Origin: an uncultured Eubacteriales bacterium
GTDB lineage: Bacteria; Acidobacteriota; Aminicenantia; Aminicenantales; Saccharicenantaceae
Direction of reading: 5' to 3'
NCBI GenBank assembly: GCA_964525875.1
Contig: CAZGJS010000013.1
Span: forward strand, 10,254-74,253
Length of the DNA: 64,000 bases
The notes under the pieces were generated by a model. The model ran no database searches, was not told the origin of the DNA, and saw only the letters and a list, made by a program, of their open reading frames with translations. Position numbers and translations under genes: made by a program. Shown here one piece after another: positions 28,933 through 58,636 of the stretch (its first letter is position 1; the number at the start of each line of letters is the position of its first letter).

Positions 28933-28933
28933 G

Positions 28934-34712: not shown

Positions 34713-34757
34713 TGGAGCCAGCGAGAGGGATCGAACCTCCGATCTGCAGATCAGTTG
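34713..34757 (-). repeat. R1: degenerate direct copy of tRNA-Thr 3' end (oldest/outermost island junction)
   Basis: tggagccagcgagagggatcgaacctccga identical to 3' 30 nt of tRNA-Thr at 58560; next 15 nt partially similar. Confidence 0.7.
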
Positions 34758-34849
34758 CCCGTCAGCCCGGCCAGTCACAGCCGGGCGTCCCCTTAAAAAT
34801 TCCATCGTTCAATCCTTTGTTCGACAAAACTCATTTTCGGAAGAATAAA

Positions 34850-35638
34850 ATGAAGATGAGCTTGACGAGAGCCAGCCTTGTCCTCTTCGGAGTCGCTGTT
34901 GCCTGGTTCTCCGGATGTCAAGCGGGCCTCCGAGTCATCCCTCCCTCCGCTCCTCCTATAACCCCCGCTCCCGCTGCGCCCAGCGCCGCCGTGACGCGGA
35001 CGGGCTGCACCGTGCAGGTGGGCGCCTTCTCCATCCTGGACAATGCTCGACGGCTGGCCCAGGCCCTGAACGACATTGGCCTGGATGCTTATTATTTTTC
35101 ACAGGGGTCGGGGCTCTTTAGAGTTCGTTTCGGGGACTTCCCTTCCAGGGACGCCGCCGTCCGCGAGGCCGAGCGACTTCTCGAGCAAGAGCTCGTCGAG
35201 GACTACTTCATCGTCGGCCCCGAGGATCACCCCGTTTACGGGCGGAGCTTGTCGGGAGAGGACCTCCGGGAAAATCTGGTGGCCACAGCGGAGAGTTTCA
35301 TCGGTGTGGAGTACACGTGGGGCGGAACATCGAGCCCCGAAGGCGTCGATTGCAGCGGACTGGTCCGGGCGGTCTACCAGCTGAACGGCATCAGCGTGCC
35401 TCGGACGATGATGGATCAATACCAAGCGGGAACGACGGTCGCCCGGGACCGGCTGCAAAAGGGCGACCTCGTCTTCTTCTCCGTCTCTCCGGGCCGGCCG
35501 ATATCCCATGTGGGGATCTACGTCGGGGAGAACTTCTTTATTCATGCCCCGGGGAAAGGCCAAAAGGTCCGCGAGGAATCACTCGACGGCCTTTATTTCA
35601 AGGAGCGTTTCTCCGGAGCCAGAGCTTACTTGAACTAG
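34850..35638 (+). CDS. lipoprotein with SPOR domain and NlpC/P60 peptidoglycan endopeptidase domain
   Basis: ATG 34850 (MKMSLTRASLVLFGVAVAWFSGC lipobox); SPOR-like CTVQVGAFS...FRVRFGDF; NlpC/P60 Cys (GVDCSGLV) and His (ISHVGIYVG); ORF N-terminal extension MEPARGIEPP is translation of repeat R1. Confidence 0.7.
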   Translation: MKMSLTRASLVLFGVAVAWFSGCQAGLRVIPPSAPPITPAPAAPSAAVTRTGCTVQVGAFSILDNARRLAQALNDIGLDAYYFSQGSGLFRVRFGDFPSRDAAVREAERLLEQELVEDYFIVGPEDHPVYGRSLSGEDLRENLVATAESFIGVEYTWGGTSSPEGVDCSGLVRAVYQLNGISVPRTMMDQYQAGTTVARDRLQKGDLVFFSVSPGRPISHVGIYVGENFFIHAPGKGQKVREESLDGLYFKERFSGARAYLN

Positions 35639-35678
35639 CCCCCTCCCCGTTACTTGGCTTGAAGATATCGTCGAGGCC

Positions 35679-36155
35679 TTAAGGGAAGAGCTTCTTCGTC
35701 AAGGCGGCCAGGTTCTTGGCGTGGGATTCGCAACAGTCGAGCGACCTCTTATCGGGCCGGCCGATCGAGACCGGGCCGTAGTGGTCGAACCGGTGGTCCC
35801 CCTGGACGACCATGCCGTGAATGAGGAGCGCCTGGAGGATATCGAGGACCGTCGTCTCGTTGCCGCCTCCGATGTTGGCCGAGGAGGTGAAAGCCCCGCC
35901 GACCTTCCCCCGGAGCTTCCCGTGGAACTTGACGCTCTCGTCGAGGAGCTTCTTCAGCTCCCAGGCCATGGTGCCGTAGTAGGTCGGGGACCCGAGGACG
36001 ATGCAGTCGTAGCCGAGGAGGCCGGCCGGGGACGTGTCCTCGACCGTCATCAGGTCTACCTCGAGGCCTTGCGACTCGAGGACCTCGGCGATCCGGGCCG
36101 CCATCTTCTTGGTATTTCCCGTCCGGGAATAATAGGAAACCAGGGCTTTGGGCAT
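35679..36155 (-). CDS. flavodoxin-like fold protein (WrbA/NAD(P)H:quinone oxidoreductase-type)
   Basis: ATG 36155 with RBS GGAGGAG; MPKALVSYYSRTGNTKKMA flavodoxin FMN-binding signature. Confidence 0.65.
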   Translation of the reverse strand: MPKALVSYYSRTGNTKKMAARIAEVLESQGLEVDLMTVEDTSPAGLLGYDCIVLGSPTYYGTMAWELKKLLDESVKFHGKLRGKVGGAFTSSANIGGGNETTVLDILQALLIHGMVVQGDHRFDHYGPVSIGRPDKRSLDCCESHAKNLAALTKKLFP

Positions 36156-36228
36156 CGGACTCCTCCTGCGACGCTGCCGATTATGGCTTAGGAAGGAAGT
36201 CAAGTCAAACCGACAGGTGCCAGCTTGG

Positions 36229-36295
36229 TGTCGACTTTTTGTCGTGTTGAACACTAAAAAGGGCTTAAAACGGCTTAAAAGGACATAAAGCCCGA
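36229..36295. repeat. solo IS21-family terminal repeat (TGTCGACTTTTTGTCGTGTTGAAC...GGCTTAAAAC GGCTTAAAAG)
   Basis: ~85% identical to 44153-44217 next to IS21 istB remnant; both begin TGTCGAC with different flanks; internal tandem GGCTTAAAA repeats typical of IS21 multi-site termini. Confidence 0.5.
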
Positions 36296-36352
36296 TTATC
36301 ACCAGATCTCCCGTAAGTGATTGAATCATCTGTTCTATATGGGGAGAATCAA

Positions 36353-36480
36353 TGGAGCCAGCGAGAGGGATCGAACCTCCGACCTGCTGATTACGAAGGG
36401 ACTGCTCTAGCGTTTCAAATTACTGATAATAAATGTATTAGGTGGGGCGCCCAATCAATTGTGCTCATCTAAGGCGCCGG
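36353..36480 (-). repeat. R2: tRNA-Thr 3'-end copy (46 nt identical) continuing into degenerate pseudo-tRNA and conserved arm
   Basis: tggagcc...ctgattacgaa identical to tRNA; then gggactgctctagcgtttcaaattactgataataaa... shared with R4/R5; second tRNA-3'-like segment at 36504-36533 resembles R6 variant (ctccgacctttgg). Confidence 0.7.
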
Positions 36481-36776
36481 AAGAGGGCGGATTGAATGTC
36501 GTGCCCGAGAGGATATGAATCTCCGACCTTTGGATGTGGAGTCTATTGCCTTTCCTCGCTTTTTTGTGCTCTCGCTCTTTCCACCCGCATAATTGCTGCG
36601 TAGATACCACAACGATATAGCCCGGATGGCATCATCAGTGAATTCTTCGATAGCAAGCCAGCATAAATCTATGAGATTCGCATCATCGACAACCGTAGGC
36701 GCGAGCACCTGACCCGCAAAATACCGCAACTCATCAAAAGAAGGAAACAGACCTGGCCAGAGCGGACGGTAAGCTG

Positions 36777-37325
36777 CTAAAGCCTGATACCGGCAAAAAT
36801 GCCGATGCGGGCGCCTCCCAGCTTGAACTTGACGTCCCCGATTGTCTCCGTTGCGGAGATATACCCAACCTTGACTTCCGCAAAAACGATCTTCCCGGCC
36901 ACGAGCAGACCCGCCTTGGCTTGATAACCGAGTTTCGATCCAAAGAAGCTGGACTCCAGAGCATCTTCGGTGTACATCACATCGGCCAGGCCCGCCTCGA
37001 GCTTAAACATCAGTATCTTTCCTATCCTATCGACGAATCCGAACCCGGCCGAAAGGAAACTCTGCGTCGACCGGGCATCGAAGCCGAAGTCCGGGATTTT
37101 GCCGCTCCTGCTGACGGCCCCGTACCCTCCCATCACATAGAGGCTCCGGTAGATCCTGAAGCCGATCTCAAATTCAGGCTGGACGGCGCCGCTGCCGTAG
37201 ATTGCGCGGTAATTGGCATCCGCATGCTTCAAATAACTCGCCCCGACCGAGAGCAACAAGCGGTCGGCAGCTCGACCCGATCCGGACACGCACAGGAAGA
37301 CAAGAATGAGAGCAACCTTTTTCAT
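36777..37325 (-). CDS. small outer-membrane beta-barrel protein (OmpA-like barrel family)
   Basis: Signal peptide MKKVALILVFLCVSGSGRA; alternating-hydrophobic strands; C-terminal aromatic-rich end. Confidence 0.5.
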   Translation of the reverse strand: MKKVALILVFLCVSGSGRAADRLLLSVGASYLKHADANYRAIYGSGAVQPEFEIGFRIYRSLYVMGGYGAVSRSGKIPDFGFDARSTQSFLSAGFGFVDRIGKILMFKLEAGLADVMYTEDALESSFFGSKLGYQAKAGLLVAGKIVFAEVKVGYISATETIGDVKFKLGGARIGIFAGIRL

Positions 37326-37331
37326 GGCCTT

Positions 37332-40300
37332 CTACCTCTTCACGATTCTACGCAGGGGATCCTTCTCCTGCTTCTGCCGCTGAGGAGAAGGCGCAAGGTC
37401 AAGCCCCTGCGAGGTATAGATCACGAAGCCCCGGCAGTCCAACGCATCGATCCTATAGGCATAACTCACCTTGCTCTCGAGGTACATGTCGGTGTACGTC
37501 CACTGACCTGCCACAGTATCGTCCCACGTGAAAAGTTTAATGCCCCGGTAGGAAGCGCTACCCGCCTTCCGCATCAAGCGAAAGGTGACCGCGCTCTGAG
37601 GCGCCGACAGAGTGACCTCCGCGTTGATCCGGGCATAATCCATCCGCGCGATCCAGGCCCTGACGAATCCGCGCTCGACTTGGAGCTGCGCCGAAACGGA
37701 TAGAGAGATGCCGTGGCCGGTGGCCGTGAAGGGGGCGCTGCCGTTCACGGGATCGTTCGAAAGGATAGAAAAGACGGCGGACACCGGGCCTGTCCCCCCG
37801 GAGGGCAGAAACCCGATCCCAATCTCGGCAGATCCTCCCGGCGCGATGGAGAACGGCGTGGGCGGGCCCAGGTAGCCGAAATCCGAGGACCCGGAGGCCC
37901 ATATAACGCGGTTCACGACCAGGGGAGCGTCACCGTCGTTGTAAAGGAACGTCGTTTCGTAGACGCCCGTACACACGTTCACGTAACCGAAGCTGAGGTC
38001 CCAGATCGGCAGCCTTAGGACGGACTTGTAAGCCGGAGTCGTCAGCGGAACCTCGTCGGAGTACCCGGAGTTCCCGGCTCCGTTATAAGCGCAGACCCTG
38101 TAGAAGTAAGTCGTATTCTCCAGAGCGCTCCTGTCCACGAAAGCATACGAGCCGATCAATGTGCTGCCGATTTGGCTCCAGGCGCCGGCGGCGCCCGTTT
38201 TCCGATCGATCTTGAAACCCGCCGCGTTGAAGGCGTTGTTGAGCCATGTCAAGGTGACCTGGGTGGCCAACGGGGCCGTCGCTTGAAGGCCCGACGGCGC
38301 GATCGGGAGCGACAAGGGAGGTGTTGTCACCGAGGCTTCATTGGATGGGAAAGACTCCGTATGGTCGTGAACCAAGGCCAGGACCCTGTAGAAGTACGTT
38401 GTGTCTTCCGCCACGTAGTTGGTGTCGACATACGATGTCGCGTCATAGGACCGGCGGGCAAGAATCGTCCACGAACCGTTGGCATGGACCTTGCGTTCGA
38501 CGAGATGCTCGATCGCGTGATTCGAATTGTTGACCCAGGAAAGTTCGATCCGCCGTTCGTTGACGGCCGTCGCCGTGAGGTTCGTCGCGGCTGCCGGCCG
38601 CGTGAAGAACAGGCAGGGGATCGAATACTCCGAGTCGCCGAAATCATTGTAGGCCCGGATACGGTAGATATAGGGCCACCCTTCCGTGAGGCCTGTGTCT
38701 TCGTAGGTTATGACATTGGCGTCGACCGTGGCTATCTGGACCCATTCTTGAGGTGGATTATTCTGCCGTTCGATCTTGAAACCGGTTTCGTTTGTCGACT
38801 CGTCGGTCCAGGTTATTTCGATTTCGGCAGTCGTGACATTCCCCTTCCGCAAAAGATAGGGTCCGCAGGGGGGCAAGTCTTCGGAGATCCTGGCGATGAA
38901 CGCGTCGTCGGAGAGCCCTGAAGGTACCGCGCCGGAGGCGGGAATCGCGCCCAGGGAAATGGGGAAGTCGGCCGAGCGCGTGTAACCGGCGACAAACACG
39001 TTCCCGGACCCGTCCGTGGCGACCCCCGCGGCCTCATCGTCTTGCGAGCCGCCGAGATAGCTGCAATAGAGCAAACTCTCGCCGGTGGAGCCGACCGTGG
39101 CCGCAAACGCGTCCGTTAATCCCGCATGAACAAGGAACGGGCCGCCGGTGACCGGGAAATCCGCGGCGGAGGACGTCGAACCGGCGACATAGGCCCGCCC
39201 GGCGAAATCGACCGCGATGGCTTTTCCCTGGTCGTCGCCCGAACCGCCGATGAATCCACAGTAGTAAAGGTTGCCGCCGAGTTCGAAGACTTTGGCCACG
39301 AAGGCGTCGTTGCCGCCGTGATGAACCAGGTCCGGCCCTTCCTTGACGGGAAACAGCGATCCGGAATTGGTCGTCCCCGTGACATAGGCGCTGCCGTGTG
39401 AGTCGACAGCGATCGCGGCTCCGGAGTCGACGCCTGCGCCCCCGATATAGCCGCAGTACTCAATCATGGCCCACGGGTTCACTTTGGCCACGAAGGCGTC
39501 CTGGTTTCCGTTATAGGTGTATGACGGCCCTACCCAGACGCGGAAATTTTCAGTCGGGGAGGAACTCGTGCTGCCTGTGATGTAGGCATATCCCGAGGAG
39601 TCGACGGCGATGCCCGACCCGACGTCTGCCTGCGAGCCGCCGATGTATCCGGAATAGACGAGCGATGTACCTGCGGCATTCACCTCAGTCACGAAAGCGT
39701 CACGGCCCCCTTTGGGCGACGTTTCGGGTCCTGACTTGACCGGGAAATCGCCCGATTCCGTCCAGCCCGTGAGGTAGGCGCGTCCTGAACTATCGACCGC
39801 GATCGCGTTGGCCTGGTCGGACCGGCTCCCGCCGACGAAGCCGGAATAGATGAGTGACGTGCCCTCGGCGTTTACTTTAGTTACGAACGCGTCGCTGTAT
39901 TGCGAGATCTCAGGGCGATGCGTTAAGTATGGGCCGACGAGGACCGGAAAGTCCGAGGAAAACGTCCTTCCCGAAACGTAAGCGTTGCCGGCGGAATCGA
40001 CCGCCACGCCGGTGCCGACATCCTCCGCGATTCCTCCGATGAACCCACAATAGACCAGGGCCGTGCCGTCGGCGGTCACCTTGGCCACGAACGCGTCGCT
40101 TTTCCCCGAGGCGTCGTTGAACGTCAGGTCGGGGCCCGCCGTCACGGGGAAATCGAGGGAGGCGGTCCAACCCGTCAAGTAAGCATTGCCGGAACCGTCG
40201 ACGGCCACCGCCGTTGCGCGGTCGTCCGCGGCGCCTCCAATAAATCCGCAATAAATGACTGTGGCCGGATCGATCACAAGCGGCAGGCTCCGGTCATACG

Positions 40301-41087
40301 CGCCGACCGCAAAGCCAAAGGCAGCGGATGGGTCCGCCGATCCCTCGATCTGGAAAGCGACAGGGACGGGCACTCTGTCTCCGTGACGATCCTGATATGC
40401 GAGGGGCGCTTGATCATGGAAACCGCCCAGGGGTGTGTCCACCTCGAGCTGCCTTCCGGCATTGACCGCGACTCGTGAGGCCCCACGATAGGCCAGCCGG
40501 ATCGTCGAGGGGTCGACCCCCGGCTGGACGACAAACTCATACTTGAGACAATCGGTGCTGCCCGAATACGCGAGGTCGACTCCCGGCCAGAGATTCCTAT
40601 AAACGATCCGGGAATAAGACGGGAGGCCCGATTTCCATTCATCCGGACGGCCCCTAAAATAGGAGATGACCGATCCGGTCTTCTCGTCTCCACAGGGCAT
40701 CACACCGGCGGCAACCCCGAGGAAGTCCAGTTTGACGGTCCAGCGGCTCTTCTGATCGTGCTTGTTCATTAAGAAGGGGCCAGCCATAGGGAAGATTGGC
40801 GCGGCCTTCTCGGGCGTGGCGAAACGCATGAGAGATATCGAGACTCCCGTGGGCCCAAAATAGATACATGTGTCCCGGCCCGCGACGTAATAGATCACGC
40901 TGTTGTCGAGTTGGCCCTCGTTTGGGATAAAAGAAAGGGACATCCGTCCGAATTTGGCGTCTGTTCGTGGGGCGCCGGCATTGAGATTCCACCCCGCTGT
41001 GTCTGCCGGCTGCGGACGTTCGGCTATCGAGCCTGAGGATGCTCCGAAAATAAGGCAACCCAAAACCGACGTGATAATGGTCTTCAT
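37332..41087 (-). CDS. large secreted SBBP beta-propeller-repeat / fibronectin type III domain protein
   Basis: ATG 41087 (MKTIITSVLGCLIFGASSGS), RBS AGGGAAG; >8 repeats of AxDxxGNAYxTGxTxSxDFPV (SBBP); two FN3-like modules; 1251 aa. Confidence 0.65.
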   Translation of the reverse strand: MKTIITSVLGCLIFGASSGSIAERPQPADTAGWNLNAGAPRTDAKFGRMSLSFIPNEGQLDNSVIYYVAGRDTCIYFGPTGVSISLMRFATPEKAAPIFPMAGPFLMNKHDQKSRWTVKLDFLGVAAGVMPCGDEKTGSVISYFRGRPDEWKSGLPSYSRIVYRNLWPGVDLAYSGSTDCLKYEFVVQPGVDPSTIRLAYRGASRVAVNAGRQLEVDTPLGGFHDQAPLAYQDRHGDRVPVPVAFQIEGSADPSAAFGFAVGAYDRSLPLVIDPATVIYCGFIGGAADDRATAVAVDGSGNAYLTGWTASLDFPVTAGPDLTFNDASGKSDAFVAKVTADGTALVYCGFIGGIAEDVGTGVAVDSAGNAYVSGRTFSSDFPVLVGPYLTHRPEISQYSDAFVTKVNAEGTSLIYSGFVGGSRSDQANAIAVDSSGRAYLTGWTESGDFPVKSGPETSPKGGRDAFVTEVNAAGTSLVYSGYIGGSQADVGSGIAVDSSGYAYITGSTSSSPTENFRVWVGPSYTYNGNQDAFVAKVNPWAMIEYCGYIGGAGVDSGAAIAVDSHGSAYVTGTTNSGSLFPVKEGPDLVHHGGNDAFVAKVFELGGNLYYCGFIGGSGDDQGKAIAVDFAGRAYVAGSTSSAADFPVTGGPFLVHAGLTDAFAATVGSTGESLLYCSYLGGSQDDEAAGVATDGSGNVFVAGYTRSADFPISLGAIPASGAVPSGLSDDAFIARISEDLPPCGPYLLRKGNVTTAEIEITWTDESTNETGFKIERQNNPPQEWVQIATVDANVITYEDTGLTEGWPYIYRIRAYNDFGDSEYSIPCLFFTRPAAATNLTATAVNERRIELSWVNNSNHAIEHLVERKVHANGSWTILARRSYDATSYVDTNYVAEDTTYFYRVLALVHDHTESFPSNEASVTTPPLSLPIAPSGLQATAPLATQVTLTWLNNAFNAAGFKIDRKTGAAGAWSQIGSTLIGSYAFVDRSALENTTYFYRVCAYNGAGNSGYSDEVPLTTPAYKSVLRLPIWDLSFGYVNVCTGVYETTFLYNDGDAPLVVNRVIWASGSSDFGYLGPPTPFSIAPGGSAEIGIGFLPSGGTGPVSAVFSILSNDPVNGSAPFTATGHGISLSVSAQLQVERGFVRAWIARMDYARINAEVTLSAPQSAVTFRLMRKAGSASYRGIKLFTWDDTVAGQWTYTDMYLESKVSYAYRIDALDCRGFVIYTSQGLDLAPSPQRQKQEKDPLRRIVKR

Positions 41088-41239
41088 GGTCGCTTCCCTA
41101 TTTCCATTCGAACCACGCTCACTTTTAAAGACTGGCAGCAATCCCCCTCTTAGCTAACAGTATCTCCGGTCTCGATCCCATGTCAAGAGCCTGAGCCCGG
41201 GTCCGAATACGGTCTGCATATCGAGGAGCCAACGAGCGG

Positions 41240-41290
41240 CTGGGCCGACGAGACTCGAACTCGCGACCTCCGGCGTGACAGGCCTTGCGA
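41240..41290 (-). other. tRNA-derived 3' fragment (T-arm + acceptor-like), possible second att scar
   Basis: Minus-sense ...GGTCGCGAGTTCGAGTCTCGTCGGCCCAGCC: T-loop TTCGAGT with GCGAG/CTCGT stem and 7-nt acceptor-like strand; no matching 5' half nearby. Confidence 0.3.
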
Positions 41291-41309
41291 GGAGTCGCTT
41301 AATATCGGC

Positions 41310-41852
41310 CTATTTCTTCTTTTCCGCTATCGGCCTCAGCTCCATGCCGAGCTGCTGATAAAAATCCAGATAATTTTCGACTGCCCAGAATTCCTTGACT
41401 TTCCCGTCGGCGATAACGAATAGGCATTGGGCCGGCACTGTCACTTCTTTGCCCGTCGGGGGGATCCCCTCATATTCGGCTTTGTGAGTCCCATTTTGAT
41501 TGAGCCTAACCGCTACATTGTCGCCCTCTGCAACAAGAGTCTCGATTTTGTGTCTCCAATCCGGGAAGGCGGCATAATGAGTTTTTGCTACTTGAGATAG
41601 CACGTCGATCCTCAACGGCTCGGGCAGCCCGGGAGACTGAAACGAAAAATCGTCTGCGGAAAGTTCCTTCATGCGCGAGTAGTCTTGAGCGTCAATGGCT
41701 TCGAAAAACTGACGCACGATGGCTTTGTTCTGGTCCTCTATTTGAGCCAGGTTTTTTGCTTTCTCAAGCTCGGCCATTGCCGCCTTGTCCTGGCAAGCGA
41801 TGGTGAAACAAAACAGAAGGACCAAGGGACCGGCACAGAGATACTTTTTCAT
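41310..41852 (-). CDS. SnoaL-like/NTF2-fold ester cyclase-type lipoprotein (low GC)
   Basis: Signal peptide/lipobox LLFCFTIAC; SnoaL-like polyketide cyclase fold motifs; GC ~50% vs ~67% host. Confidence 0.5.
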   Translation of the reverse strand: MKKYLCAGPLVLLFCFTIACQDKAAMAELEKAKNLAQIEDQNKAIVRQFFEAIDAQDYSRMKELSADDFSFQSPGLPEPLRIDVLSQVAKTHYAAFPDWRHKIETLVAEGDNVAVRLNQNGTHKAEYEGIPPTGKEVTVPAQCLFVIADGKVKEFWAVENYLDFYQQLGMELRPIAEKKK

Positions 41853-43193: not shown

Positions 43194-43225
43194 GGCGAAC
43201 CCAGCTTACGGTTTCTTGAGGCCGA

Positions 43226-51215: not shown

Positions 51216-51352
51216 GTTGATAATAACTATTTGTTCTTATACGTAAAAAAGCTATAATAGCATATATAATAATACAAAAAATATAAAATACAGGCTTGAC
51301 AATTTAACAACTAATAGACTACGATCTAGCTGCTTAAGCAAGAAGGAGGAAC

Positions 51353-52699
51353 ATGTTCAAGAGGGAGATCCTGCGGCGACTTGGCGACTGGAAGAACAAA
51401 CCGGACCGCAAGCCCCTCATTCTCCGCGGCGCGCGCCAGGTCGGGAAAACCACGGCCGTGGAGCTTTTCTCGGCAGCCTACGACCAGTTCATTTCCCTCA
51501 ACCTCGAGAAGCCCGAGGAGGCGAAGCTCTTTGCCCGGTCTTTGCCGGCCGCTGACCTCCTGCAGGCCATTCGGTTTTCCAAAGGGCTCCCGAGCGTCCA
51601 AGGCCGGACGCTTCTGTTCCTCGACGAGGTCCAGAACTCCCCCGAAGCTGTCTCTTCGTTGCGGTATTTCTATGAAGACCTCCCCGAGCTCCACGTGATC
51701 GCGGCCGGCTCGCTCCTCGAGATCGCCCTGACCCAGAAGCAGATCGGTGTTCCCGTGGGACGAGTTGAATACGCCCTGATGTCCCCACTTTCCTTTCGGG
51801 AGTTCCTCGAAGCCACGGGCGAAACACAGGCCCTCGAGGCCCTGGACGTCATTCCCGCCCCTGTCTTTGCCCTTCCCCGGCTGATGGATTTGTTTCACCG
51901 ATTTACCCTTGTCGGCGGCATGCCCGAGATCGTAGCGCATTATGCCGGGAATCGCGACGCCGTGGCTCTCGCGCCGCTCTACCGCTCTTTATGGACGTCC
52001 TTCCTGGACGACATCCCCAAGTACGCGCGGAACGAGACGATGAAACGCGTTATCCGGCATTGTCTCGAGGCGGCCCCGCTGGAGGCCGGCGAACGGATCA
52101 AGTTCGCCGGCTTCGGCAAATCGAACTACCGTTCGCGGGAGGCCGGCGAGTCCCTGAGGACTCTCGAGCAGGCCATGCTCCTTCACCTCCTCGCCCCCAC
52201 GACTTCCACGGAAATCCCCCTCATCCCCGACCGCCGGAAGTCCCCCAAGCTCCTGTTCCTGGATATCGGCTTGATCAACTTCACGGCCGGCATCCAGGGC
52301 CACTATTTCGAGTATCCCGATCTTTATTCCTTCTATCGCGGCCGGATCGCGGAAATGATCGTCGGGCAGGAGCTGATCGCCGCGGATCCCGGACATCACA
52401 AGCCTGTCTTCTGGGTCAGGGAAAAACGCCAGGCCCCCGCGGAAGTGGATTATGTGCTCCAGCATGGAAGCCTCGCCGTCCCCATCGAGGTCAAGGCCGG
52501 CGCGAAGGGCACACTGAAATCGCTCCACCAGTATATCAACAGGTGCCCCCACGGATTCGCCGTCCGGCTTTATGCGGGCCCCCTCGAGATCGTCCGGACG
52601 AAAACGCCGGAAGGCAAACCTTTTTCCCTCCTCAATCTCCCCTATTGCCTTGCTGGAAAGCTGGGGGCTTACATGGGCTGGATGATCGAAGGCGCCTGA
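51353..52699 (+). CDS. AAA+ ATPase with DUF4143 (COG1373 family), paralog of 49887..51017
   Basis: Walker A GARQVGKTT; RBS GGAGGA; AT-rich promoter region upstream (TTGACA at ~51296). Confidence 0.65.
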   Translation: MFKREILRRLGDWKNKPDRKPLILRGARQVGKTTAVELFSAAYDQFISLNLEKPEEAKLFARSLPAADLLQAIRFSKGLPSVQGRTLLFLDEVQNSPEAVSSLRYFYEDLPELHVIAAGSLLEIALTQKQIGVPVGRVEYALMSPLSFREFLEATGETQALEALDVIPAPVFALPRLMDLFHRFTLVGGMPEIVAHYAGNRDAVALAPLYRSLWTSFLDDIPKYARNETMKRVIRHCLEAAPLEAGERIKFAGFGKSNYRSREAGESLRTLEQAMLLHLLAPTTSTEIPLIPDRRKSPKLLFLDIGLINFTAGIQGHYFEYPDLYSFYRGRIAEMIVGQELIAADPGHHKPVFWVREKRQAPAEVDYVLQHGSLAVPIEVKAGAKGTLKSLHQYINRCPHGFAVRLYAGPLEIVRTKTPEGKPFSLLNLPYCLAGKLGAYMGWMIEGA

Positions 52700-52732
52700 A
52701 GTGCCCAACCAGGTCTCGAATTGGTGAATCGA

Positions 52733-52960
52733 TGGAGCCAGCGAGAGGGATCGAACCTCCGACCTGCTGATTGCGAACGAACTGCCCAAGCGTTTCAACT
52801 TACTGTTAATAAAGGTAATTAGGTGGGGCGCCCAATCGATTGTGCGCAGATTGTGCTCACCTGCGGCCCTGCCCCGAATTGGTGATCAGCTGCACTTCAG
52901 CCCGGTCAGCCGCAACCGGGCATCCACAACTTCTTGAAGGCCTGAAGCCTCGACTGCTAA
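52733..52960 (-). repeat. R5: chimeric tRNA-Thr 3'-end copy + pseudo-tRNA + extended conserved arm
   Basis: 45/46 nt identical to tRNA 3' part; middle segment R2/R4-like (agcgtttcaacttactg.taataaaggtaattaggtggggcgcccaatcgattgtgc), distal segment R3-like. Confidence 0.7.
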
Positions 52961-53011
52961 TATTAGTCGCCATAGCCGAGATAGCTCTGCCAGGCCTCTC
53001 GCCGACCCGGA

Positions 53012-54775
53012 CTACTTCTTGTCCGCGCCACGCTCAATCATGAACTCCCATTTGTAGATCAGATCCTTGGCCTCCCGGGCGTTCGGGGCGCCTGGGGAGA
53101 GCTCAAGATAGGCGTTCATGTGCATGATAGCCTGGCTGAACTTGCCGAGTTCCGCGGCAAGCAGCGCGGCGTCATAACGGAGAGTGGGACAGAACGGGGC
53201 AGCGCGGAGGGCGGAGGTGTATTCGCCGAGGGCCCCTTCGAGGTCCTTTTCCTTGACCAGGACTTCGCCCCGCAGAGAGTATTTCCGGGCCTCCTCTGGA
53301 AGCGCGGCAAGCTCGGGATGGGCCGTGAGCAGGGCCGCCGCCCGGGACATGATCGCTTTCGATCCAGCTTGGTCGGCGATTTGCAGGGCCAAAGTGTTTT
53401 CCCCGAGGGCACCACGGGGATCGCCCCCAGCTTCCAGGGAATTGGCCTTCTCCAAGTGTCCCTGAACGGTGGGCTTTAGAAGATCAGCAAGGATCCCGGC
53501 GTTCTTGACGAAGAGAAAATTTGTGGAGGAAAGCATGAGTCCCCCGATCGGAGCGAAGATTCTTTCGGCCTCCGTCACATCCCCTCTTTTGGAGTAAGCG
53601 ATGGCCGCGAGGACGCGAGCCAAAGTGAAGTCGTTGTCCCTGATCGAGGAAAGTTGCTTGACGGCCTCGTCATAACTCCCCCGGTCGAGCGCGACGACCC
53701 CCGAGGAGAACAGTGACCAGTCATGTCCAGGTTCGATCGACCCGGCCTTCTCGGCGCTGCTCGCCGCCTCGTCGGCCCGGCCGTTTTCCCGGCAAAGGAA
53801 GCTTCGAAGCCCGAGCACCTCGACACTGTCTTTGGGTTCCATCTTTCCGAGGAGCCTATCGGCCGCAGCGATAGCTTTATCCAGTTCCCCCATTCGAGCC
53901 CAGGTGTTCATCAGGGACCGGATCGGGTCGGATTCGTCGGGGGCAAGCTCGGCGGCCGCTTGGTAATTTACGACGGCCGCGGGGTAATTGCCGAGGCTGT
54001 AGAAGGCATTGCCGAGCCGGTTGTAGGTCCAAGGATTCTTGGGGTTCAGCCCGATGCCCTTCTTCAGCGGCTCAACCGCCTTGGCGAAATCTCCCATGCC
54101 CATGAGCGAGTCGGCGAGTCCCACATGGGCGTCGGAGTTGTCCGGGGCCAGCTTGATGGCACTCTCGGCCGCGGCCTTAGCTTCGTCATATTTCTTCAAC
54201 GCGATTTTGGAGAAGGCCAACCCGATGAAGTTCTTGGGATCCTGAGGGTTCACCCGAGCCCTCGCCTGAAAGACCGAGGCGGCCTTTTCGTACTCGCCGG
54301 ATGAATAAAAGGCCATGCCCGCCCGGCTCTGGATCAAACCCATGCCTTGGACGATCTTCGCCGCGGCCTTGGCAGAGGCGCTGCCGGCCCATTCCGCCAT
54401 GATCTTCATGCCCGCAATGGCCTGGTCGATATCGGCGCCCTTGCTGATCAGGAGGTCGATCATGTCGCCGTAGCCTTCCGCGGCGGCGCAACCGAGCGCC
54501 GTCCAGCCGTTCTTGCCCAGAGAGTTCACGTCGGCGCCCCTGTCAATCAGGAGCTTGGCGATCTCCAGCCTGTTCTCGCTAGCCGCCCATATGAGCGCGG
54601 TGCCGAAATTCCATTCGTTGATATCGGCCCCTTTATCCAGGAGATCCTGGACCTTTTTGATATCCCCCTTGTGGACGGCCTTCTGCAGAGCCGTCATGCC
54701 GGAAGCGGTGCCGACGGTGATAAAGCCGATGGCGAGAAAAGCCGCTAACGCTCCGATATGCCTAAAGAGTCTCAT
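53012..54775 (-). CDS. ankyrin-repeat + TPR-repeat protein with N-terminal signal/TM anchor
   Basis: ATG 54775 (MRLFRHIGALAAFLAIGFITV); 4 ANK repeats (G.TAL..A...G....v.lLl..GAD.N); ≥8 TPR-like helices. Confidence 0.65.
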   Translation of the reverse strand: MRLFRHIGALAAFLAIGFITVGTASGMTALQKAVHKGDIKKVQDLLDKGADINEWNFGTALIWAASENRLEIAKLLIDRGADVNSLGKNGWTALGCAAAEGYGDMIDLLISKGADIDQAIAGMKIMAEWAGSASAKAAAKIVQGMGLIQSRAGMAFYSSGEYEKAASVFQARARVNPQDPKNFIGLAFSKIALKKYDEAKAAAESAIKLAPDNSDAHVGLADSLMGMGDFAKAVEPLKKGIGLNPKNPWTYNRLGNAFYSLGNYPAAVVNYQAAAELAPDESDPIRSLMNTWARMGELDKAIAAADRLLGKMEPKDSVEVLGLRSFLCRENGRADEAASSAEKAGSIEPGHDWSLFSSGVVALDRGSYDEAVKQLSSIRDNDFTLARVLAAIAYSKRGDVTEAERIFAPIGGLMLSSTNFLFVKNAGILADLLKPTVQGHLEKANSLEAGGDPRGALGENTLALQIADQAGSKAIMSRAAALLTAHPELAALPEEARKYSLRGEVLVKEKDLEGALGEYTSALRAAPFCPTLRYDAALLAAELGKFSQAIMHMNAYLELSPGAPNAREAKDLIYKWEFMIERGADKK

Positions 54776-55131
54776 GTCATCCTCCCAGTAAAATCTGCTC
54801 TGGCCGGGGCGAAAATATCCGCCTCTCCACACGCGTCGGACCGCTTCAGATCGAGCGGACACTATCGAGATTTTAGTTTCCGTCGATTCCCAGTCTAATG
54901 GACCTACAAAGCGAGTCCATCATCCACTCAGGTGGAATGAGGGGTGATTTTTACCATGCAGCCATCATCGTCCCCATGAGCGGCCCCTTCGGCTCCGGAA
55001 CGAAAGCTGTCACTCTAACTCAGAAGAGTCGGGAATCGACCAGGCTTTGGCTTCCCGAAGAGTTGGCAGACGAGGCCTAAGATGTCTCAGTTGTGTGAAC
55101 TGATGCTAACAATAAGAAACAGGATAAAGGG

Positions 55132-55165
55132 TGGAGCCAGCGAGAGGGATCGAACCTCCGACCTT
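55132..55165 (-). repeat. R6: tRNA-Thr 3'-end copy (34 nt), variant crossover (gacctttggg)
   Basis: tggagccagcgagagggatcgaacctccgacct identical, then diverges; the variant tail is also found at 36521-36533. Confidence 0.7.
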
Positions 55166-55298
55166 TGGGCTTTGCCGTGCGCGCCGTCTGAAAAGAACCG
55201 TCAATCATCGCTCTTTTGGGCCCTCTGGGCCGAGGACGTCTCCCTCTATTTGTCCCAGGCGGGCAATATCATCGTTTCATATGCCAACGTCCCGGCGC

Positions 55299-56465
55299 CT
55301 ATTCCCAGACGATCCGGTAGCGCGTCAGGACGCGCACGCCCGTGTCCGGGTCCTCCTTGTACCGGTACATCCTTCCGGCGGCGAATTTCGCGGGATTGAA
55401 ATCGAGCCAGCCCCTGGCATCATAGCGCCCCTCGGCGTCGAAGACGTCGTAGGCTGTGAGCTTGCGCCCGCCCTCGTCTTTCGTCTCGTTTGTCGCCACC
55501 CATAAGAATCCCCGGTCGTCGCAGAGCATCCGCTCCGTCACCGTCTTGACCTTCGGCCAGGGCATGTCTCGATAGATCTCTGCAAGCTCCTTGGGGCCGC
55601 TCGTTCTGGCCGTGTACTCCTCCCTGTCCGCGTCGGTGAACGAGACCCGCTCGTAGGGCCTGTCGATCTTCCGGAAGATCCGGCCGGCGGCATCGAAGAC
55701 CTCGATGAGATACGCGTCGTTCATGCAGTGATAGACCCGCCGGAGCACGGGGTCACCCGTCAGGACCGAACGCGGACTGTAAGGGATGCTCACGGTGATG
55801 GCGACTTCGCCCCTGGTAACGAATTTTGTCCCGGGAAGGACGAATTCGCCCCAGTTCTTGATCTCGGCACCTTCGAAATCGTAGGTCTTTACGAAAAGCT
55901 TCGATGCGCCGGCGTCATAGAAGGACTCGTGGACGACGTAGGCGTTTTCGAGGACGAGGAGAGGGATCGAGATGTTCTTCGTCCATTGATAGCTGGCCAG
56001 GAAGTCGCCTTCGGGACCGAAAAACGACGTCCGCTTGTTCTGGAAGTCCGTGACGAGGAGCCGTCCGTCGGGGCAGAACCCGAGAAAAAAGGCCTGGGCG
56101 AACTCGCCCGGACCCTGTCCCTTCCGGCCGACCGTCTGCAGGAACCGCCCGTCTTCACCGAAGACCTTGATCGTGCCTTCCCCGGATTCGTAGATATAGA
56201 CCTGGTTCCGGCCGTCGACCGCAAATTGGCCGGGCTTGTAGACCGCCCCGGGCCCCGATTCCTCGGCGCCGAAGGATACCTCCTCCTCGAATCGCACGGC
56301 CTTGCGGGGATTGAGCGGCTCCGGAGGATTGTGGACAAGGGTCACGCCGTCCACGGTCTCCGTTCGGACCTTCGCACCTCGGGACCCAACCGGCCCCTTC
56401 CGGCAGCCGGACAGAAGAAGGGCCGGAACGAGAACGAGAAGCCAGAGAGATCGATGCGCCGTCAT
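55299..56465 (-). CDS. lipoprotein, predicted 6-bladed beta-propeller (TolB/NHL-like)
   Basis: ATG 56465 (MTAHRSLWLLVLVPALLLSGC lipobox); repeated hydrophobic-Gly-Asp blade motifs. Confidence 0.45.
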   Translation of the reverse strand: MTAHRSLWLLVLVPALLLSGCRKGPVGSRGAKVRTETVDGVTLVHNPPEPLNPRKAVRFEEEVSFGAEESGPGAVYKPGQFAVDGRNQVYIYESGEGTIKVFGEDGRFLQTVGRKGQGPGEFAQAFFLGFCPDGRLLVTDFQNKRTSFFGPEGDFLASYQWTKNISIPLLVLENAYVVHESFYDAGASKLFVKTYDFEGAEIKNWGEFVLPGTKFVTRGEVAITVSIPYSPRSVLTGDPVLRRVYHCMNDAYLIEVFDAAGRIFRKIDRPYERVSFTDADREEYTARTSGPKELAEIYRDMPWPKVKTVTERMLCDDRGFLWVATNETKDEGGRKLTAYDVFDAEGRYDARGWLDFNPAKFAAGRMYRYKEDPDTGVRVLTRYRIVWE

Positions 56466-56701
56466 GATAGCCTCCTTTGGCAACCCCCTACGGAATGGGA
56501 TCATTATGTCCCAAGAGGCGGCGCAGATTCAAGCCCGGGCGCGGAACGGTTCGGACCCGCGGGAAGGCCGCCCCAGAAGGAAATAGAAGGCGGAAACGAG
56601 GCGTGCCGGAGAGGATTCGACCCTCCGACCTTAGGATCCATTTGCCAGAAAACTCACATTGTGTCTACACCATTTTTCAGGGATGAGGTCCCCCCAGCAA
56701 T

Positions 56702-58396
56702 TCATTCCAACCGAGGAATCCTATACTCCACCCTTCGACTGGGAGGCTGGAGAACGATATCCTCGTACCCACTCGCTCTCCTGAACCACAACCGGACTTG
56801 CTCCATGAAACCCGTGAATACCAGGAAGATCCCCTTCAGGATCACCCCCGGGCCGGCTTTGCCAAGAACCTTTGCGTACAATCTCATCGCCTTCCGGGCC
56901 TTCATCCTGGCAGCCCTGTTGGGTGCGAACAAGAGGGCGGGAAGCAGGATGGGGCGCAGGTTCAAGGCGATCTTCTGGAGACGTCTGATCCTCTGGCGCA
57001 TGAACACGTCGTCAGCAGCATGGTCGCTCTTCTCGTATCGCAGACTCTCGGGGTTCCAGACAAGCGATTCCGCCTCCCTCCATGTTCTATCGGCCTCGGC
57101 CTTCGCATAGCCTCGGACGGCGGTGATCGCCATGTTGAGGATACCAGGTCCGCTGGCCTCGTATTTCCTCCTGAATGCTTTTTTCAGCAGGTTAGCCTGT
57201 TCCTTTGGATCAACGATGTGCGGGTGGTTCCAGTTCAGTTCTCCCGCGCCGTGGTGGAAGCGCCAGTGGATGTCCTTGAGCCTTCCCTCGCCGGCAAGTC
57301 TTGCGTACAAGCCGGTGCATGGGCAGGGTGTGTAGTTCATGAACTGGGTCATGTCGGAACCGAGACCGATGATCCACTCGATGTCTTCCCTGATGGTCAC
57401 CTGGTCATGGTGGTCAAGGAAAAGGATGCCAGACGTTATCACCGAGATGCCCTTGTCCTGGAGCTGAGCTATCAGTTTGCCGATGTCTATGTCCTTAAGC
57501 TTCGCATGGGTGTTGGCCCTTGACTCGACACCGATCCAAATCATGTGTATGCCGAGTCGCACGAGGAAATCGATGCCCACATCGGTGGTCACCTCAGCAG
57601 AGGAGAATATGTCGAAGACGTAGGCCTTTCCCTGTGCCTCCAACTGGGTAAGAAGTTCCCTGGCTCGTTGGGGTTTCTTGAGGAAATTCTCATCGATAAT
57701 GGTAAATCCCCTTGAACCCAGTTCCTTTTCGGACTTCAGACAGGCATCGAACACCTGGGCCCCGGTCGACATAAAGGGCACATACTCCTTGCCGAACTTG
57801 AAGGAAGTGGCGCAGAACTCACAGGCATTGTTGCACCCCACCCCGGTGAGCAGGATCGACCCCTTCGTGGGAGTTCTTGCCCCATAGATGTACTCGTAAG
57901 CTGGGCCCAAGAGGGCAGGATGCACGATAGGTGCCGATGGGTCTTCCCCGAAGTACCGCCTCAGCCACTCCACACCCTCGCCCTCGCATACACCGTCGTG
58001 GGGTACGATGGTCTCCAGGGCAGGGACCATGGTGCCGAAGCCGCCCAGTATTATCTTCATCTCAGGGTGCTTAGATCTGATGTGCTCGGCCATCCTTCGA
58101 GCCTTTAGGATGTTGGGGACGATGAAGGTGATGCCCACGTGAGTGTAACCCTTTTCCAGTTCCCTCGTGAATTCTTCCCAGGTGGGAAAATCGAGAACAG
58201 TTGCAGGCACCGAGACCTTCTCCGCGAGCAGGTACAGCGGGAAGCTCCAGTAGGACTGCCGGGGCGAGTGGACTCCCTGCTGCCTCGTGATCTGATTGTT
58301 TAAGAGCTCCATCTGCATTCCAGTTCCCTCCGCGTAATCGTCTCTCACCCCGAAGGGACCGAAGACAGAAACCAGAAGAAGTCTTATCGGATTCAT
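56702..58396 (-). CDS. B12-binding-domain radical SAM protein (low GC)
   Basis: CNNACEFC (CxxxCxxC) radical SAM cluster motif preceded by cobalamin-binding-like Rossmann segment (KIILGGFG); GC ~52%. Confidence 0.65.
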   Translation of the reverse strand: MNPIRLLLVSVFGPFGVRDDYAEGTGMQMELLNNQITRQQGVHSPRQSYWSFPLYLLAEKVSVPATVLDFPTWEEFTRELEKGYTHVGITFIVPNILKARRMAEHIRSKHPEMKIILGGFGTMVPALETIVPHDGVCEGEGVEWLRRYFGEDPSAPIVHPALLGPAYEYIYGARTPTKGSILLTGVGCNNACEFCATSFKFGKEYVPFMSTGAQVFDACLKSEKELGSRGFTIIDENFLKKPQRARELLTQLEAQGKAYVFDIFSSAEVTTDVGIDFLVRLGIHMIWIGVESRANTHAKLKDIDIGKLIAQLQDKGISVITSGILFLDHHDQVTIREDIEWIIGLGSDMTQFMNYTPCPCTGLYARLAGEGRLKDIHWRFHHGAGELNWNHPHIVDPKEQANLLKKAFRRKYEASGPGILNMAITAVRGYAKAEADRTWREAESLVWNPESLRYEKSDHAADDVFMRQRIRRLQKIALNLRPILLPALLFAPNRAARMKARKAMRLYAKVLGKAGPGVILKGIFLVFTGFMEQVRLWFRRASGYEDIVLQPPSRRVEYRIPRLE

Positions 58397-58559
58397 GTGA
58401 ATCCAACCTCCTCATCGACGGATAACTTCGAAATAGCAATTGACCTATTAATAGAATGCCAAGGTAGGAATGTCAAATCACCTAAAAGGACTTATAGCGC
58501 AATTCTGCCCGGATCCTTGGTAACTAACTGAATTATGTGCTCCATATGCAAGGAATCGA

Positions 58560-58636
58560 TGGAGCCAGCGAGAGGGATCGAACCTCCGACCTGCTGATTA
58601 CGAATCAGCTGCTCTACCGACTGAGCTACGCTGGCC
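58560..58636 (-). tRNA. tRNA-Thr (anticodon CGU)
   Basis: GCCAGCG-TA-GCTC-AGTCGGTA-GAGC-A-GCTGA-TTCGTAA-TCAGC-AGGTC-GGAGG-TTCGATC-CCTCT-CGCTGGC-T-CCA; cloverleaf with U33, anticodon CGT, A37; encoded CCA. Confidence 0.85.

Follow-up and report, generated by a model that had tools for sequence, protein, structure and literature searches.

Tandem accretion of mobile elements at the 3' end of a target gene has been described in Streptococcus for integrative and conjugative elements (ICEs), integrative and mobilizable elements (IMEs), and cis-mobilizable elements (CIMEs) (PMC5704250, a review citing Pavlovic 2004 and Bellanger 2011). CIMEs are bounded by attachment (att) sites, are devoid of integration and transfer genes, accumulate in tandem at one attB by successive site-specific integration events, and can be moved by a functional neighbour (PMC5704250). 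The present study concerns the tRNA-Thr(CGU) gene of an uncultured Aminicenantia bacterium (contig CAZGJS010000013.1) and the 24-kb array of partial tRNA copies and cargo genes on its 3' side; the 64-kb stretch that was analysed is hereafter called the window. Tandem accretion with CIMEs is the nearest known concept for this array: in Pfam and profile searches, its units resemble CIMEs in being att-bounded and without integration and transfer genes. They differ in that the integrase-less state is the rule over hundreds of junctions and not an occasional decay product. Furthermore, the units hold one or two genes, neither genes for conjugation nor a partner ICE could be seen, the sole integrase-bearing partner is prophage-like, and mobilization is what we infer.

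The closest natural example is the ssrA islands of Dehalococcoides, in which many direct repeats of the tmRNA 3' end lie downstream of the gene and tandem islands form a region of high plasticity (PMC3146451). Some of these islands have no integration module, and their authors suggested that they are CIMEs; the repeat is 20 bp long, and a serine recombinase, DsiB, is encoded in 16 islands (PMC3146451). As in the present array, the tandem units there are bounded by directly repeated copies of a small RNA gene's 3' end; however, the site here is a 45-nt tRNA core with an arm of ~200 nt, a tyrosine integrase is the candidate enzyme, and no recombinase is encoded in the cassettes. In the tRNA islands of Prochlorococcus, integration is repeated, older elements are pushed outward, partial tRNAs are scattered, and cargo, which is ecologically useful, is of a plug-in type (bioRxiv 10.1101/2020.12.28.424599). 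Tycheposons carry their own recombinase and usually a replication module, and fragmented integrases occur in Prochlorococcus islands (bioRxiv 10.1101/2020.12.28.424599), whereas the window cassettes have no recombinase, replication module, or integrase fragments. Neither a long conserved arm nor dual Thr/Arg cores were described in the Prochlorococcus work (bioRxiv 10.1101/2020.12.28.424599).

The array is integron-like in that its cassettes are one-directional, recombinase-free, of one or two genes, each terminated by a recombination site, and shared between species. However, no intI, attI, or Pc lies beside it, the flank being TonB-SMC, and no tyrosine recombinase is encoded in the 64 kb. 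The junctions are direct tRNA-derived repeats and not attC hairpins, promoters appear to be present within the cassettes themselves, and about one quarter of the genes are oppositely oriented. Since there is no intI or attI and no attC, the array is not an integron. IMEX elements and pdif modules are also integrase-less, bounded by short sites, and arranged in tandem, with the recombinase encoded elsewhere (XerC/D, acting at dif-like 28-bp sites); here, in contrast, the sites are tRNA 3' halves with long arms, which are typical of lambda/P4-type tyrosine integrases. The locus is set apart from the known systems by the near-universal absence of integrases without remnants, the cassette-sized units, an arm of ~200 nt that is found across species, and two tRNA-derived cores with hybrids between them.

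The reading preferred here, to which we give a probability of roughly 60%, is that the tRNA-Thr(CGU) gene is a hotspot with a one-directional array of small, integrase-less, cis-mobilizable cassettes, which would have accreted at attB and would probably have been moved in trans. It draws on comparative sequence analysis. Genomes, one per species, were scanned for the 28-mer described below, which returned 72 loci (~0.45 Mb); together with the window and the metagenome loci, ~1.3 Mb was compared (1.33 Mb in the six-frame hidden Markov model (HMM) search). Most comparison sequences are metagenome-assembled genome (MAG) or metagenome contigs, and nearly all of the 72 loci bear Candidatus Aminicenantes or Aminicenantia MAG titles.

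The sole tRNA found by ARAGORN in the window is tRNA-Thr(cgt), and the Rfam match (RF00005, 58563-58635, 70.7 bits) agrees with it; the Rfam scan of the window returned nothing besides this tRNA. A first-pass annotation, made from the DNA letters without database searches, had the gene and its strand right and its end one base too far (58636 instead of 58635). The exact 28-mer GGAGGTTCGATCCCTCTCGCTGGCTCCA, the last 28 nt of the tRNA, occurs at 34713, 36353, 46741, 52733, 55132, and 58560, always on the minus strand, with 0 occurrences in 100 shuffles. A further copy, at 51139, has a 9-nt internal deletion and substitutions. Recurrence of the tRNA 3' end in one orientation at six positions, as noted at first pass, is therefore borne out by five exact copies and the damaged one. 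Identity to the tRNA runs from the anticodon loop for 45-57 nt at 36353, 46741, and 52733, covers the same block minus the deletion at 51139, and amounts to 33 nt at 55132 and to 39 nt with two mismatches at 34713. A junction profile built from related junctions returned exactly these seven sites in 64 kb, all minus, and no others. The anchor and the junctions, apart from the hybrid copy at 55132, which is listed below, are as follows.

58560-58635, minus strand: intact tRNA-Thr(CGU), anchor of the array (attB/attL side); ARAGORN and Rfam.
58483-58559, minus strand: P' arm, short form of class b, directly after the tRNA.
52778-52988, minus strand: class-1 P arm with GAGCACAATC/GCGCACAATC repeats at 52838-52858; nhmmer E=2e-79.
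52733-52777, minus strand: 45-nt Thr core c52733; exact 28-mer and alignment.
51139-51215, minus strand: damaged junction c51139, core at 51139-51174 with a short class-1 P arm.
46741-47014, minus strand: junction c46741, 45-nt core (46741-46785) and class-1 P arm; nhmmer E=2e-69.
44152-44218, minus strand: isolated distal part of a class-b P' arm, left over from a lost junction; 90% identity to 36229-36295.
36353-36478, minus strand: junction c36353, 45-nt core (36353-36397) and truncated class-1 P arm.
36229-36352, minus strand: full class-b P' arm.
34713-34776, minus strand: terminal attR-like junction c34713, 39-nt core and distal P-arm motif.

The copies at 36353, 46741, 51139, and 52733 have a common sequence upstream of the core (in the orientation of the tRNA), the class-1 P arm, which had gone unnoticed at first pass; it reaches ~200 nt at 46741 and 52733, and a pair of direct GAGCACAATC-like repeats lies in it, ~60-80 nt ahead of the core. 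The copy at 34713 is a class-1 site with an internal deletion of ~130 nt, so that the distal arm motif GACTGGCCGGGCTGACGGGCAACTGATC is fused to the core; the same internally deleted derivative is carried by MEYF01000082. On the other side of the core, the flank downstream of the tRNA (58483-58559) is 79% identical to that downstream of the 36353 copy (36276-36352). This P' arm has the motif GTGGCACAA, and homologous flanks follow the tRNA in MEYF, CAVRDU, CAVUOW, and JAKLEN. Since arms are found on both sides of the core, an internal junction has the order P arm-core-P' arm and is attP-like; judged by sequence, the tRNA end looks attL-like and the last copy attR-like. Recombination at the 3' half of tRNA-Thr accounts for the repeats, which are att-type junctions. 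When a tyrosine integrase crosses over at a tRNA gene, the identity usually begins within the anticodon loop at a point that depends on the class, for which Williams, in 2002, is said to have given a sublocation scheme.

The 67-nt repeat 36229-36295/44152-44218 was considered as an IS21 terminus and rejected, since it is the distal part of the P' arm conserved after the tRNA in several genomes. The RNAalifold consensus of the class-1 arm, computed with RNA parameters and not as a single-strand DNA fold, shows conserved structure only in the T arm and in one short stem, which lies over the repeat region; on this result, the arm as a structured RNA or attC-like site was dropped. In the class-1 arm, GCCAG directly before the core could pair with the acceptor 3' strand; the cores compared had been selected as invariant. 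In JBFYOD010000151.1 (2028-2099, locus L016), a partial copy comprising arm and core is annotated by ARAGORN as a 72-nt tRNA-Thr. The peptide MEPARGIEPP, seen in the ORFs 34712-35638 and 55131-55505, is an artefact of ORF finding, as had been suspected at first pass; it is the plus-strand reading of the tRNA tail, GTG/ATG GAG CCA GCG AGA GGG ATC GAA CCT CC.

Conserved chromosomal genes lie on both sides of the array.

58847-59620, minus strand: TonB_C gene (Pfam), conserved chromosomal flank 5' of the tRNA, followed by SMC.
33665-34636, plus strand: DUF7544 gene (Pfam), first conserved chromosomal gene past the array, syntenic with JAGNLW.

The TonB_C gene adjoins tRNA-Thr in more than 25 genomes, and a ResB flank gene is located at 32182-33537 in the window. 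In JAGNLW010000003 (L061), TonB_C and tRNA-Thr are followed, after ~0.9 kb, by DUF7544-ResB, while the gap between the same genes in the window is 24 kb; by this synteny, the array is an insertion relative to JAGNLW. Because a P'-like flank, with the motif TGGCACAA twice (GAGTGGCACAAATGTGGCACAAGG), persists after its tRNA, the JAGNLW site is near-empty and not virgin. An empty tRNA-Thr site in a relative, proposed at first pass as a check, is thus represented by one of less than 1 kb versus 24 kb. The first-pass idea of serial integration at a tRNA attB was right in kind, given the co-oriented att-type repeats and this near-empty site. Compared with JAGNLW, the window also has additional segments at ~20.4-26.0 kb and 26.4-31.4 kb (within 20431-31409), which are without tRNA-derived repeats.

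In other genomes, partial copies occur in about half of the contigs with a canonical tRNA, always co-oriented and on its 3' side, as in CAVWFA010000003 (tRNA and eight partial copies inside 21 kb) and CAWEJF010000015 (seven copies in 36 kb). In the majority of partial copies, the identity is exactly 45 nt and the arm is the conserved ...GAGCACAATCTGAGCACAATCGATTTTGCG.CCCA.CTAATTAC.TTTATTATCAGTAAGTTGAAACGCTAGGCCAGTTGG; in a second arm class the identity is 48 nt, and core identity from the anticodon loop is 45, 47, or 48 nt by arm class. Other copies have 29-33 nt of identity, starting from the variable or T region. The arm repeat motif GAGCACAATCTGAGCACAATC alone matches at least 120 metagenome loci. 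Over all related loci, 339 cores were found, with no source having mixed orientations and with a median spacing of 2260 bp (interquartile range 1379-3248, maximum 10863). The units are mostly of one or two genes, and the ORFs between cores are co-oriented with them in 196 cases and opposite in 59.

These data bear on whether the repeats could be a dispersed tRNA-derived family, similar to short interspersed nuclear elements (SINEs) or miniature inverted-repeat transposable elements (MITEs), or else an assembly artefact caused by repeats. The former had been named at first pass as the alternative to island boundaries. On contigs of 0.16-2.4 Mb, the exact core is found at a single locus, always co-oriented and downstream of the tRNA, with CAVRDU as the one exception. 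There is no copy elsewhere in the 64-kb window, and the architecture recurs in independent contigs of up to 2.4 Mb. Therefore, the single locus and the clustered, unidirectional copies exclude a dispersed SINE/MITE family. Two observations favour the dispersed-family or artefact explanation, namely a second cluster in CAVRDU, ~700 kb from its tRNA-Thr, and Logan contigs of the source sample that break at cores; dispersed family and artefact taken together are very improbable. The exception in CAVRDU010000006.1 (1.06 Mb) consists of three Thr-type copies and one Arg-type copy at 8690-11820 (L029), near the start of the contig, with no intact tRNA in the stretch examined; its tRNA-side cluster lies at 721674-729351 (L017, L068). 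The Logan contigs L079 (3448 nt) and L080 (6000 nt), from SRR13723393, the probable source sample, begin and end at tRNA-derived cores and encode the same proteins as the window. The arrays account for short-read assembly breaks at the tRNA-Thr locus. In an exact-protein look-up, the TonB ORF was without a match, and the radical-SAM and AAA_14 proteins matched only short Logan contigs of the source sample.

A second core family, which had been missed at first pass, is represented in the window by two relics and one hybrid.

56594-56639, minus strand: tRNA-Arg(CCG)-like 3' core relic; 91 homologous copies in related loci.
36506-36547, minus strand: second tRNA-Arg(CCG)-like core relic.
55132-55164, minus strand: hybrid core, an Arg-like 5' part (CCCAAAGGTC) with the Thr 28-mer; same hybrid in CAZZCH 6058.

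The Arg-like core has the consensus GGACTCCGGATCCAAAGGTCGGAGGTTCGAATCCTCTCAGGCACGCCA and derives from a tRNA-Arg(CCG)-like gene, of which it covers the 3' part, read from the loop of the anticodon, CTCCGGA. The fragments at 56597 and 36506 were considered as one-off degenerate copies, and this was rejected because they are members of an abundant family. Including this core type, at least nine junction relics are present, and several further junctions were lost by fusion; the count of six islands and seven copies given at first pass is thus superseded. Arg-like copies frequently lie ~25 nt after a Thr core, in many loci (e.g. CAWEJF 15499, 19157, and 22585), and in L131 a tRNA-Arg(CCG) is called (1820-1895) 220 nt beyond the tRNA-Thr. 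Hybrid cores of the Arg-5'/Thr-3' type are those at c55132 and CAZZCH 6058, while the Thr-5'/Arg-3' type is found in L116 (1597 and 3707), L096, L122, L125, L144, CAWEJF (38301), and VGJC (4868); the switch points lie within a shared AGGTCGGAGGTTCGA segment or a shared CCTCTC segment. Therefore, as the Thr and Arg cores and their hybrids show, cassettes circulate among two or more site types of tRNA origin. Searches of IMG/VR for the Thr core and for the Arg core found neither.

The cargo of the window array is listed below. The first-pass functional assignments (hydrolases, kinase, AAA+, ANK/TPR, radical SAM, flavodoxin, SBBP, and IS21 remnant) agree with Pfam.

56640-58482, minus strand: radical-SAM/B12 cassette (Pfam), gene at 56702-58396, own TTGACA...TATTAA promoter at ~58441-58470.
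55299-56504, minus strand: beta-propeller (DUF5128-like) cassette gene (Pfam).
53012-54862, minus strand: ankyrin/TPR cassette gene (Pfam).
51353-52699, plus strand: AAA_14/DUF4143 ATPase, 448 aa (Pfam; PADLOC PDC-S01, E=7e-171).
49887-51053, minus strand: AAA_14/DUF4143 ATPase, 388 aa (Pfam; PADLOC PDC-S01, E=3e-55).
46964-49834, minus strand: Ser/Thr kinase with PD40 beta-propeller, 956 aa (Pfam).
45478-46584, minus strand: metallophosphoesterase cassette gene (Pfam).
44188-45422, minus strand: IS21-family remnant, IstB of 273 aa (PF01695, E=1e-70) and an overlapping 139-aa ORF, the putative IstA C-terminus.
43226-43720, minus strand: DUF4440 (Pfam), cargo of the 10-kb fused unit (36777-43720).
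42168-43193, plus strand: alpha/beta hydrolase (Pfam), 10-kb fused unit.
41310-41852, minus strand: SnoaL (Pfam), 10-kb fused unit.
37332-41141, minus strand: SBBP/fn3 giant protein, 1269 aa (Pfam), 10-kb fused unit.
36777-37325, minus strand: 182-aa ORF, 10-kb fused unit.
35679-36329, minus strand: flavodoxin-like cassette gene (Pfam), true start probably inside the listed ORF.
34857-35638, plus strand: SPOR + NlpC/P60 lipoprotein gene (Pfam), start near 34857, lipoprotein signal MKMSLTRASL.

Window cassettes are about 88-97% identical to their counterparts in genomes whose core genes are 75-83% identical. The radical-SAM cassette (56701-58479) is 93.2% identical to that of CAVWFA, versus 77% for SMC; the cassette of the 448-aa AAA_14 protein (51265-52785) is 93.3% identical to that of VGJC, versus 75% for SMC; and the flavodoxin-like cassette is 96% identical to that of CAVQXL, versus 83% for SMC. 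The conserved flank (TonB/SMC, 58.8-64 kb) is 72-83% identical over all genomes compared, with the exception of JBGOYY (94%). The radical-SAM cassette is 93-97% identical to CAVWFA, JAPKZD, L101, and L138, with the block ending at 56600 and 58482; the values are 94.4% for JAPKZD (56600-58481) and 96.7-97.3% for L101 and L138. JAPKZD also has the NlpC/P60 cassette, at 91.5% over 34709-35652. The cassette of the 388-aa AAA_14 protein is about 87-95% identical over 8 loci (87.5% to CAVWFA and 89.9% to CAWEJF), and both AAA_14 cassettes are ~95% identical to those of metagenome locus L112 (94.7% for the 448-aa one). The beta-propeller cassette is 97.2% identical to L116 (55259-56631), where its neighbours are different, and the ankyrin/TPR cassette is 93.6% identical to L107 over 52723-55164, from core c52733 to core c55132. 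The flavodoxin cassette is 94-96% identical to DATKXS, CAVQXL, CAVZBY, and L187, and for 36044-41133 the identity to L178 is 96%; L187 lacks 36211-38050 and is thus a fused or deleted variant. The copies in metagenome contigs (L101, L107, L112, L116, L138, and L178) are closer than those in the genomes, at about 94-97% identity, and are placed in other contexts.

Edges of the homology blocks lie at cores: the DATKXS block stops at 36397, the 5' edge of c36353, that of JAPKZD starts at 34709, and 56600 is where the radical-SAM blocks begin. In the window, the radical-SAM cassette is directly adjacent to the tRNA, whereas CAVWFA has it as the last of eight units, farthest out, and in L101 a partial core precedes it. 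The islands had been held at first pass to be fixed. Because cassettes are shared, relocated, and core-bounded, that idea is untenable for the family, and some of the window junctions are dead. Judged by these comparisons, the region is a gene-swapping hotspot, with cassettes shared between species, and not a graveyard of dead islands. An age gradient with the oldest units outermost is not visible either, as the outer flavodoxin cassette is 94-96% and the tRNA-proximal radical-SAM cassette 93-97% identical to foreign copies. The related claim that the outermost copy is the most degenerate holds in part: 34713 is mismatched and arm-deleted, but the internal core at 51139 is more damaged.

Some window units appear to be composite. 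In CAVWFA, the gene of the 388-aa AAA_14 protein forms a 1443-bp single-gene unit between two cores, whereas in the window it is fused to the kinase gene without a junction. Because it stands alone in CAVWFA, the window units 51139->46741 and 46741->36353 (10 kb) are taken as cassette fusions with lost junctions. The IS21 remnant adjoins the orphan P' arm piece, and insertion of an insertion sequence (IS) may be one route of junction destruction.

Many P' flanks have TTGAC(T/A) 20-100 nt after the core, and homology of the radical-SAM cassette starts exactly at the promoter TTGACA-N17-TATTAA. A promoter scan of 44-59 kb gave 10 sites versus 3.9±2.1 expected, several of them just after junctions. 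Thus, from these promoter-like sites, the cassettes seem to bring their own promoters, unlike integron cassettes.

No integrase was found in the window by Pfam on 20 window ORFs or by six-frame phmmer, tblastn, and profile HMM searches. With XerD as the phmmer query against the six-frame window and the 72 genome loci, one tyrosine recombinase was found, CAZPEP010000005 74237-75343, which belongs to a large environmental family (PF13102 + PF00589, >3000 matches); with gamma-delta resolvase as the query, no serine recombinase was found. When 120 members of this family were used in tblastn, no remnant was detected in the window or the genome loci, and only two weak matches were obtained in 688 kb of metagenome loci chosen by the class-1 repeat motif; one of these, in L116, was rejected as a kinase. 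A family profile HMM on 1.33 Mb in six frames added only a small recombinase in L181, 8 kb past the last core.

Between the end of the CAZPEP integrase gene and a 47-nt Thr core there are 21 nt. This integrase is terminal in a prophage-like element that also encodes AAA_25, a tail tape-measure-like protein, and HTH_17. Past the CAZPEP-type att site lie the usual cassettes, which differ between two samples with the same element. The same layout, with a different tRNA-like core, is found in L073. In L201 (ENA ERZ25039515 contig_32560, 3.3 Mb; 2932-17760), tRNA-His(GTG) is followed by an element of ~8 kb that ends in a 49%-identical integrase, a partial tRNA-His, cassettes, and a partial tRNA-His at 17734. 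An AAA_25 primase-helicase-like gene is found only in the integrase-bearing elements L077, L078, and L202. The core-proximal ~35 nt of the class-1 arm align with the 3' ends of phage-type integrase genes (TTATTAACAGTAAGTTGAAAC versus CATTATTAAGCAATTAGACAT); because of this alignment, the class-1 arm lineage probably began as an attP from which the integrase gene was removed. In integrase-bearing loci, the distal arm matches only the downstream array junctions of L077/L078 and nothing in the elements themselves.

In every integrase-bearing element examined, including the tRNA-His one, the first gene past the integrase-side att site is a Ser/Thr kinase fusion of ~1000 aa (L073 2530-5652; L077 and L078 11413-14553; L201 12560-15583), with TPR or FGE-sulfatase as partners. 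Kinases make up 11% of array ORFs, and their placement next to the integrase may exceed chance.

These findings bear on the possibility that six ordinary islands or prophages were integrated serially, each later losing its integrase and excisionase, so that the array is a fixed fossil. Integrase-bearing elements do integrate at this tRNA, and the likeness of the arm to the integrase 3' end makes the arm lineage a probable deletion derivative. The decayed junctions (the deletion in c51139, the arm deletion in c34713, and the junctions lost in the 10-kb unit) and the IS21 remnant would also fit. However, independent deletions would not yield the same ~200-nt arm boundary in dozens of cassettes and species, and no integrase pseudogene fragment occurs in 1.3 Mb of arrays. 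The units, moreover, are of one or two genes, and cassettes are about 88-97% identical, at differing positions, where core genes are 75-83% identical. A fixed fossil of this kind is therefore distinctly unlikely. The first-pass statement that no integrase survives holds for the window; its implication that each island lost one does not, as there is no fragment in the window or in ~1.3 Mb of arrays and the units (median 2.3 kb) are so small. Of the integrase-bearing islands that it proposed to look for in relatives, a single related locus, with the CAZPEP prophage integrase, was found.

A mechanism for the proposed in trans mobilization can be described as follows. A cassette consists, in this order, of a short P' flank (often with an outward sigma-70-like promoter), one or two cargo genes, the P arm, and the tRNA-derived core. 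The core is usually 45 nt of tRNA-Thr, beginning in the anticodon loop; in some cases it comes instead from the 3' part of a tRNA-Arg(CCG)-like gene. Cassettes would be excised and inserted by recombination at the cores, with catalysis in trans by a tyrosine integrase targeting tRNA-Thr. A candidate enzyme is the phage-type PF13102 + PF00589 family, as exemplified by the CAZPEP prophage integrase abutting its 47-nt core. The process would amount to cis/trans mobilization of CIME-like units after tandem accretion. Part of the window array would now be immobile, because junctions have decayed or been lost (c51139, c34713, and the 10-kb fused unit).

Several points weigh against this mobilization. 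Activity is deduced from comparative data, with no excision product, circular form, or empty-site read seen; the window encodes no integrase, and none of the integrase-bearing elements examined has the GAGCACAATC repeats. The contrast in identity would be exaggerated if SMC evolves faster than the cargo, as it may; however, non-coding promoter and flank sequence inside the cassettes is also conserved at 90% or more. Repeats can cause chimeric joins in MAG and metagenome contigs, but the pattern is seen again in separate contigs, the largest of 2.4 Mb, as well as in the 64-kb window. The same cargo can lie between different P and P' arms (radical-SAM, window versus CAVWFA), which simple core-to-core exchange does not predict. 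Finally, hybrid cores switch at no fewer than two positions, a pattern that homologous recombination or gene conversion would explain no less well than an integrase.

The last two points lead to the main rival, in which the junctions are att-derived and present exchange is integrase-free, the cores and arms being portable homology for RecA-type recombination after DNA uptake. The cores are 100% and the arms 78-89% identical over ~200 nt, the arrays are without integrases, and the fused or deleted variant L187 would also be in keeping with it, as would the different switch points of the hybrids and the change of arms around one cargo. However, minimal efficient processing segments set a lower length limit for homologous recombination, and 45 nt of identity is near that limit. 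Identity begins sharply at the anticodon loop, at a length set by the class (45, 47, or 48 nt), which is the signature of site-specific crossover, and the conserved arm with its paired direct repeats suggests, from sequence conservation, selection for protein binding. Furthermore, a one-directional, tRNA-anchored array needs site-specific integration at least to arise. Overall, exchange by homologous recombination alone is considered unlikely, and the integrase-mediated mobilization of cassettes in trans remains preferred.

With regard to other features of the cargo, the two divergently placed AAA_14/DUF4143 ATPases that flank the damaged c51139 are both full-length matches to PADLOC PDC-S01, a defence candidate, and the family recurs in the arrays in two clusters of 14 and 7 members. 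Kinase-domain ORFs are the commonest cargo (80 of 718 array ORFs); the kinase domain matches the PADLOC PD-T4-6 models, which reflects generic kinase homology. A 91.5%-identical copy of the IS21 remnant occurs at 504-1627 of L196, ~2 kb from the tRNA in a metagenome contig. In the flanks, three TonB_C-type paralogues are found in the window (6848-8614, 18781-19779, and 58847-59620), all of which resemble the tRNA-Thr-adjacent gene of other genomes. By SMC, the closest relative of the window is JBGOYY010000025 (94% identity). In this contig (JBGOYY010000025.1, L025), the tRNA-Thr(CGU) at 3166-3239 has the 3' end ...GCTGGCTC followed by TCG and is without the encoded CCA tail that the window gene has.

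It is possible, though for now only a tentative proposal, that the array represents a lineage-wide, integron-like mode of gene capture in Aminicenantes, based on tRNA genes (Thr-CGU, Arg-CCG-like, and, in relatives, His-GTG). Self-promoted cassettes of one or two genes, each with a site of ~250 nt (arm and core), would be inserted, excised, and passed from one species to another by a tyrosine integrase acting in trans, which temperate elements or another part of the chromosome would provide, and would form a dedicated integrase-less mobile class and not island debris. A search of the literature for Aminicenantes in connection with genomic islands and tRNA gave no relevant result.

That mobile elements stack at tRNA and tmRNA genes is well established, but the usual picture is of a small number of large islands whose integrases are present or were visibly so in the past, whereas here hundreds of junctions share a conserved putative recombination site in an uncultivated lineage. 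The arm and core together offer a ready marker to mine accessory genes in metagenomes, in which large Ser/Thr kinases are the commonest cargo and candidate defence ATPases (PDC-S01) recur. If the cassettes are moved in trans, they would constitute a second, tRNA-based route to integron-like gene capture, and would provide a tractable explanation for hotspots of the flexible genome in environmental bacteria.

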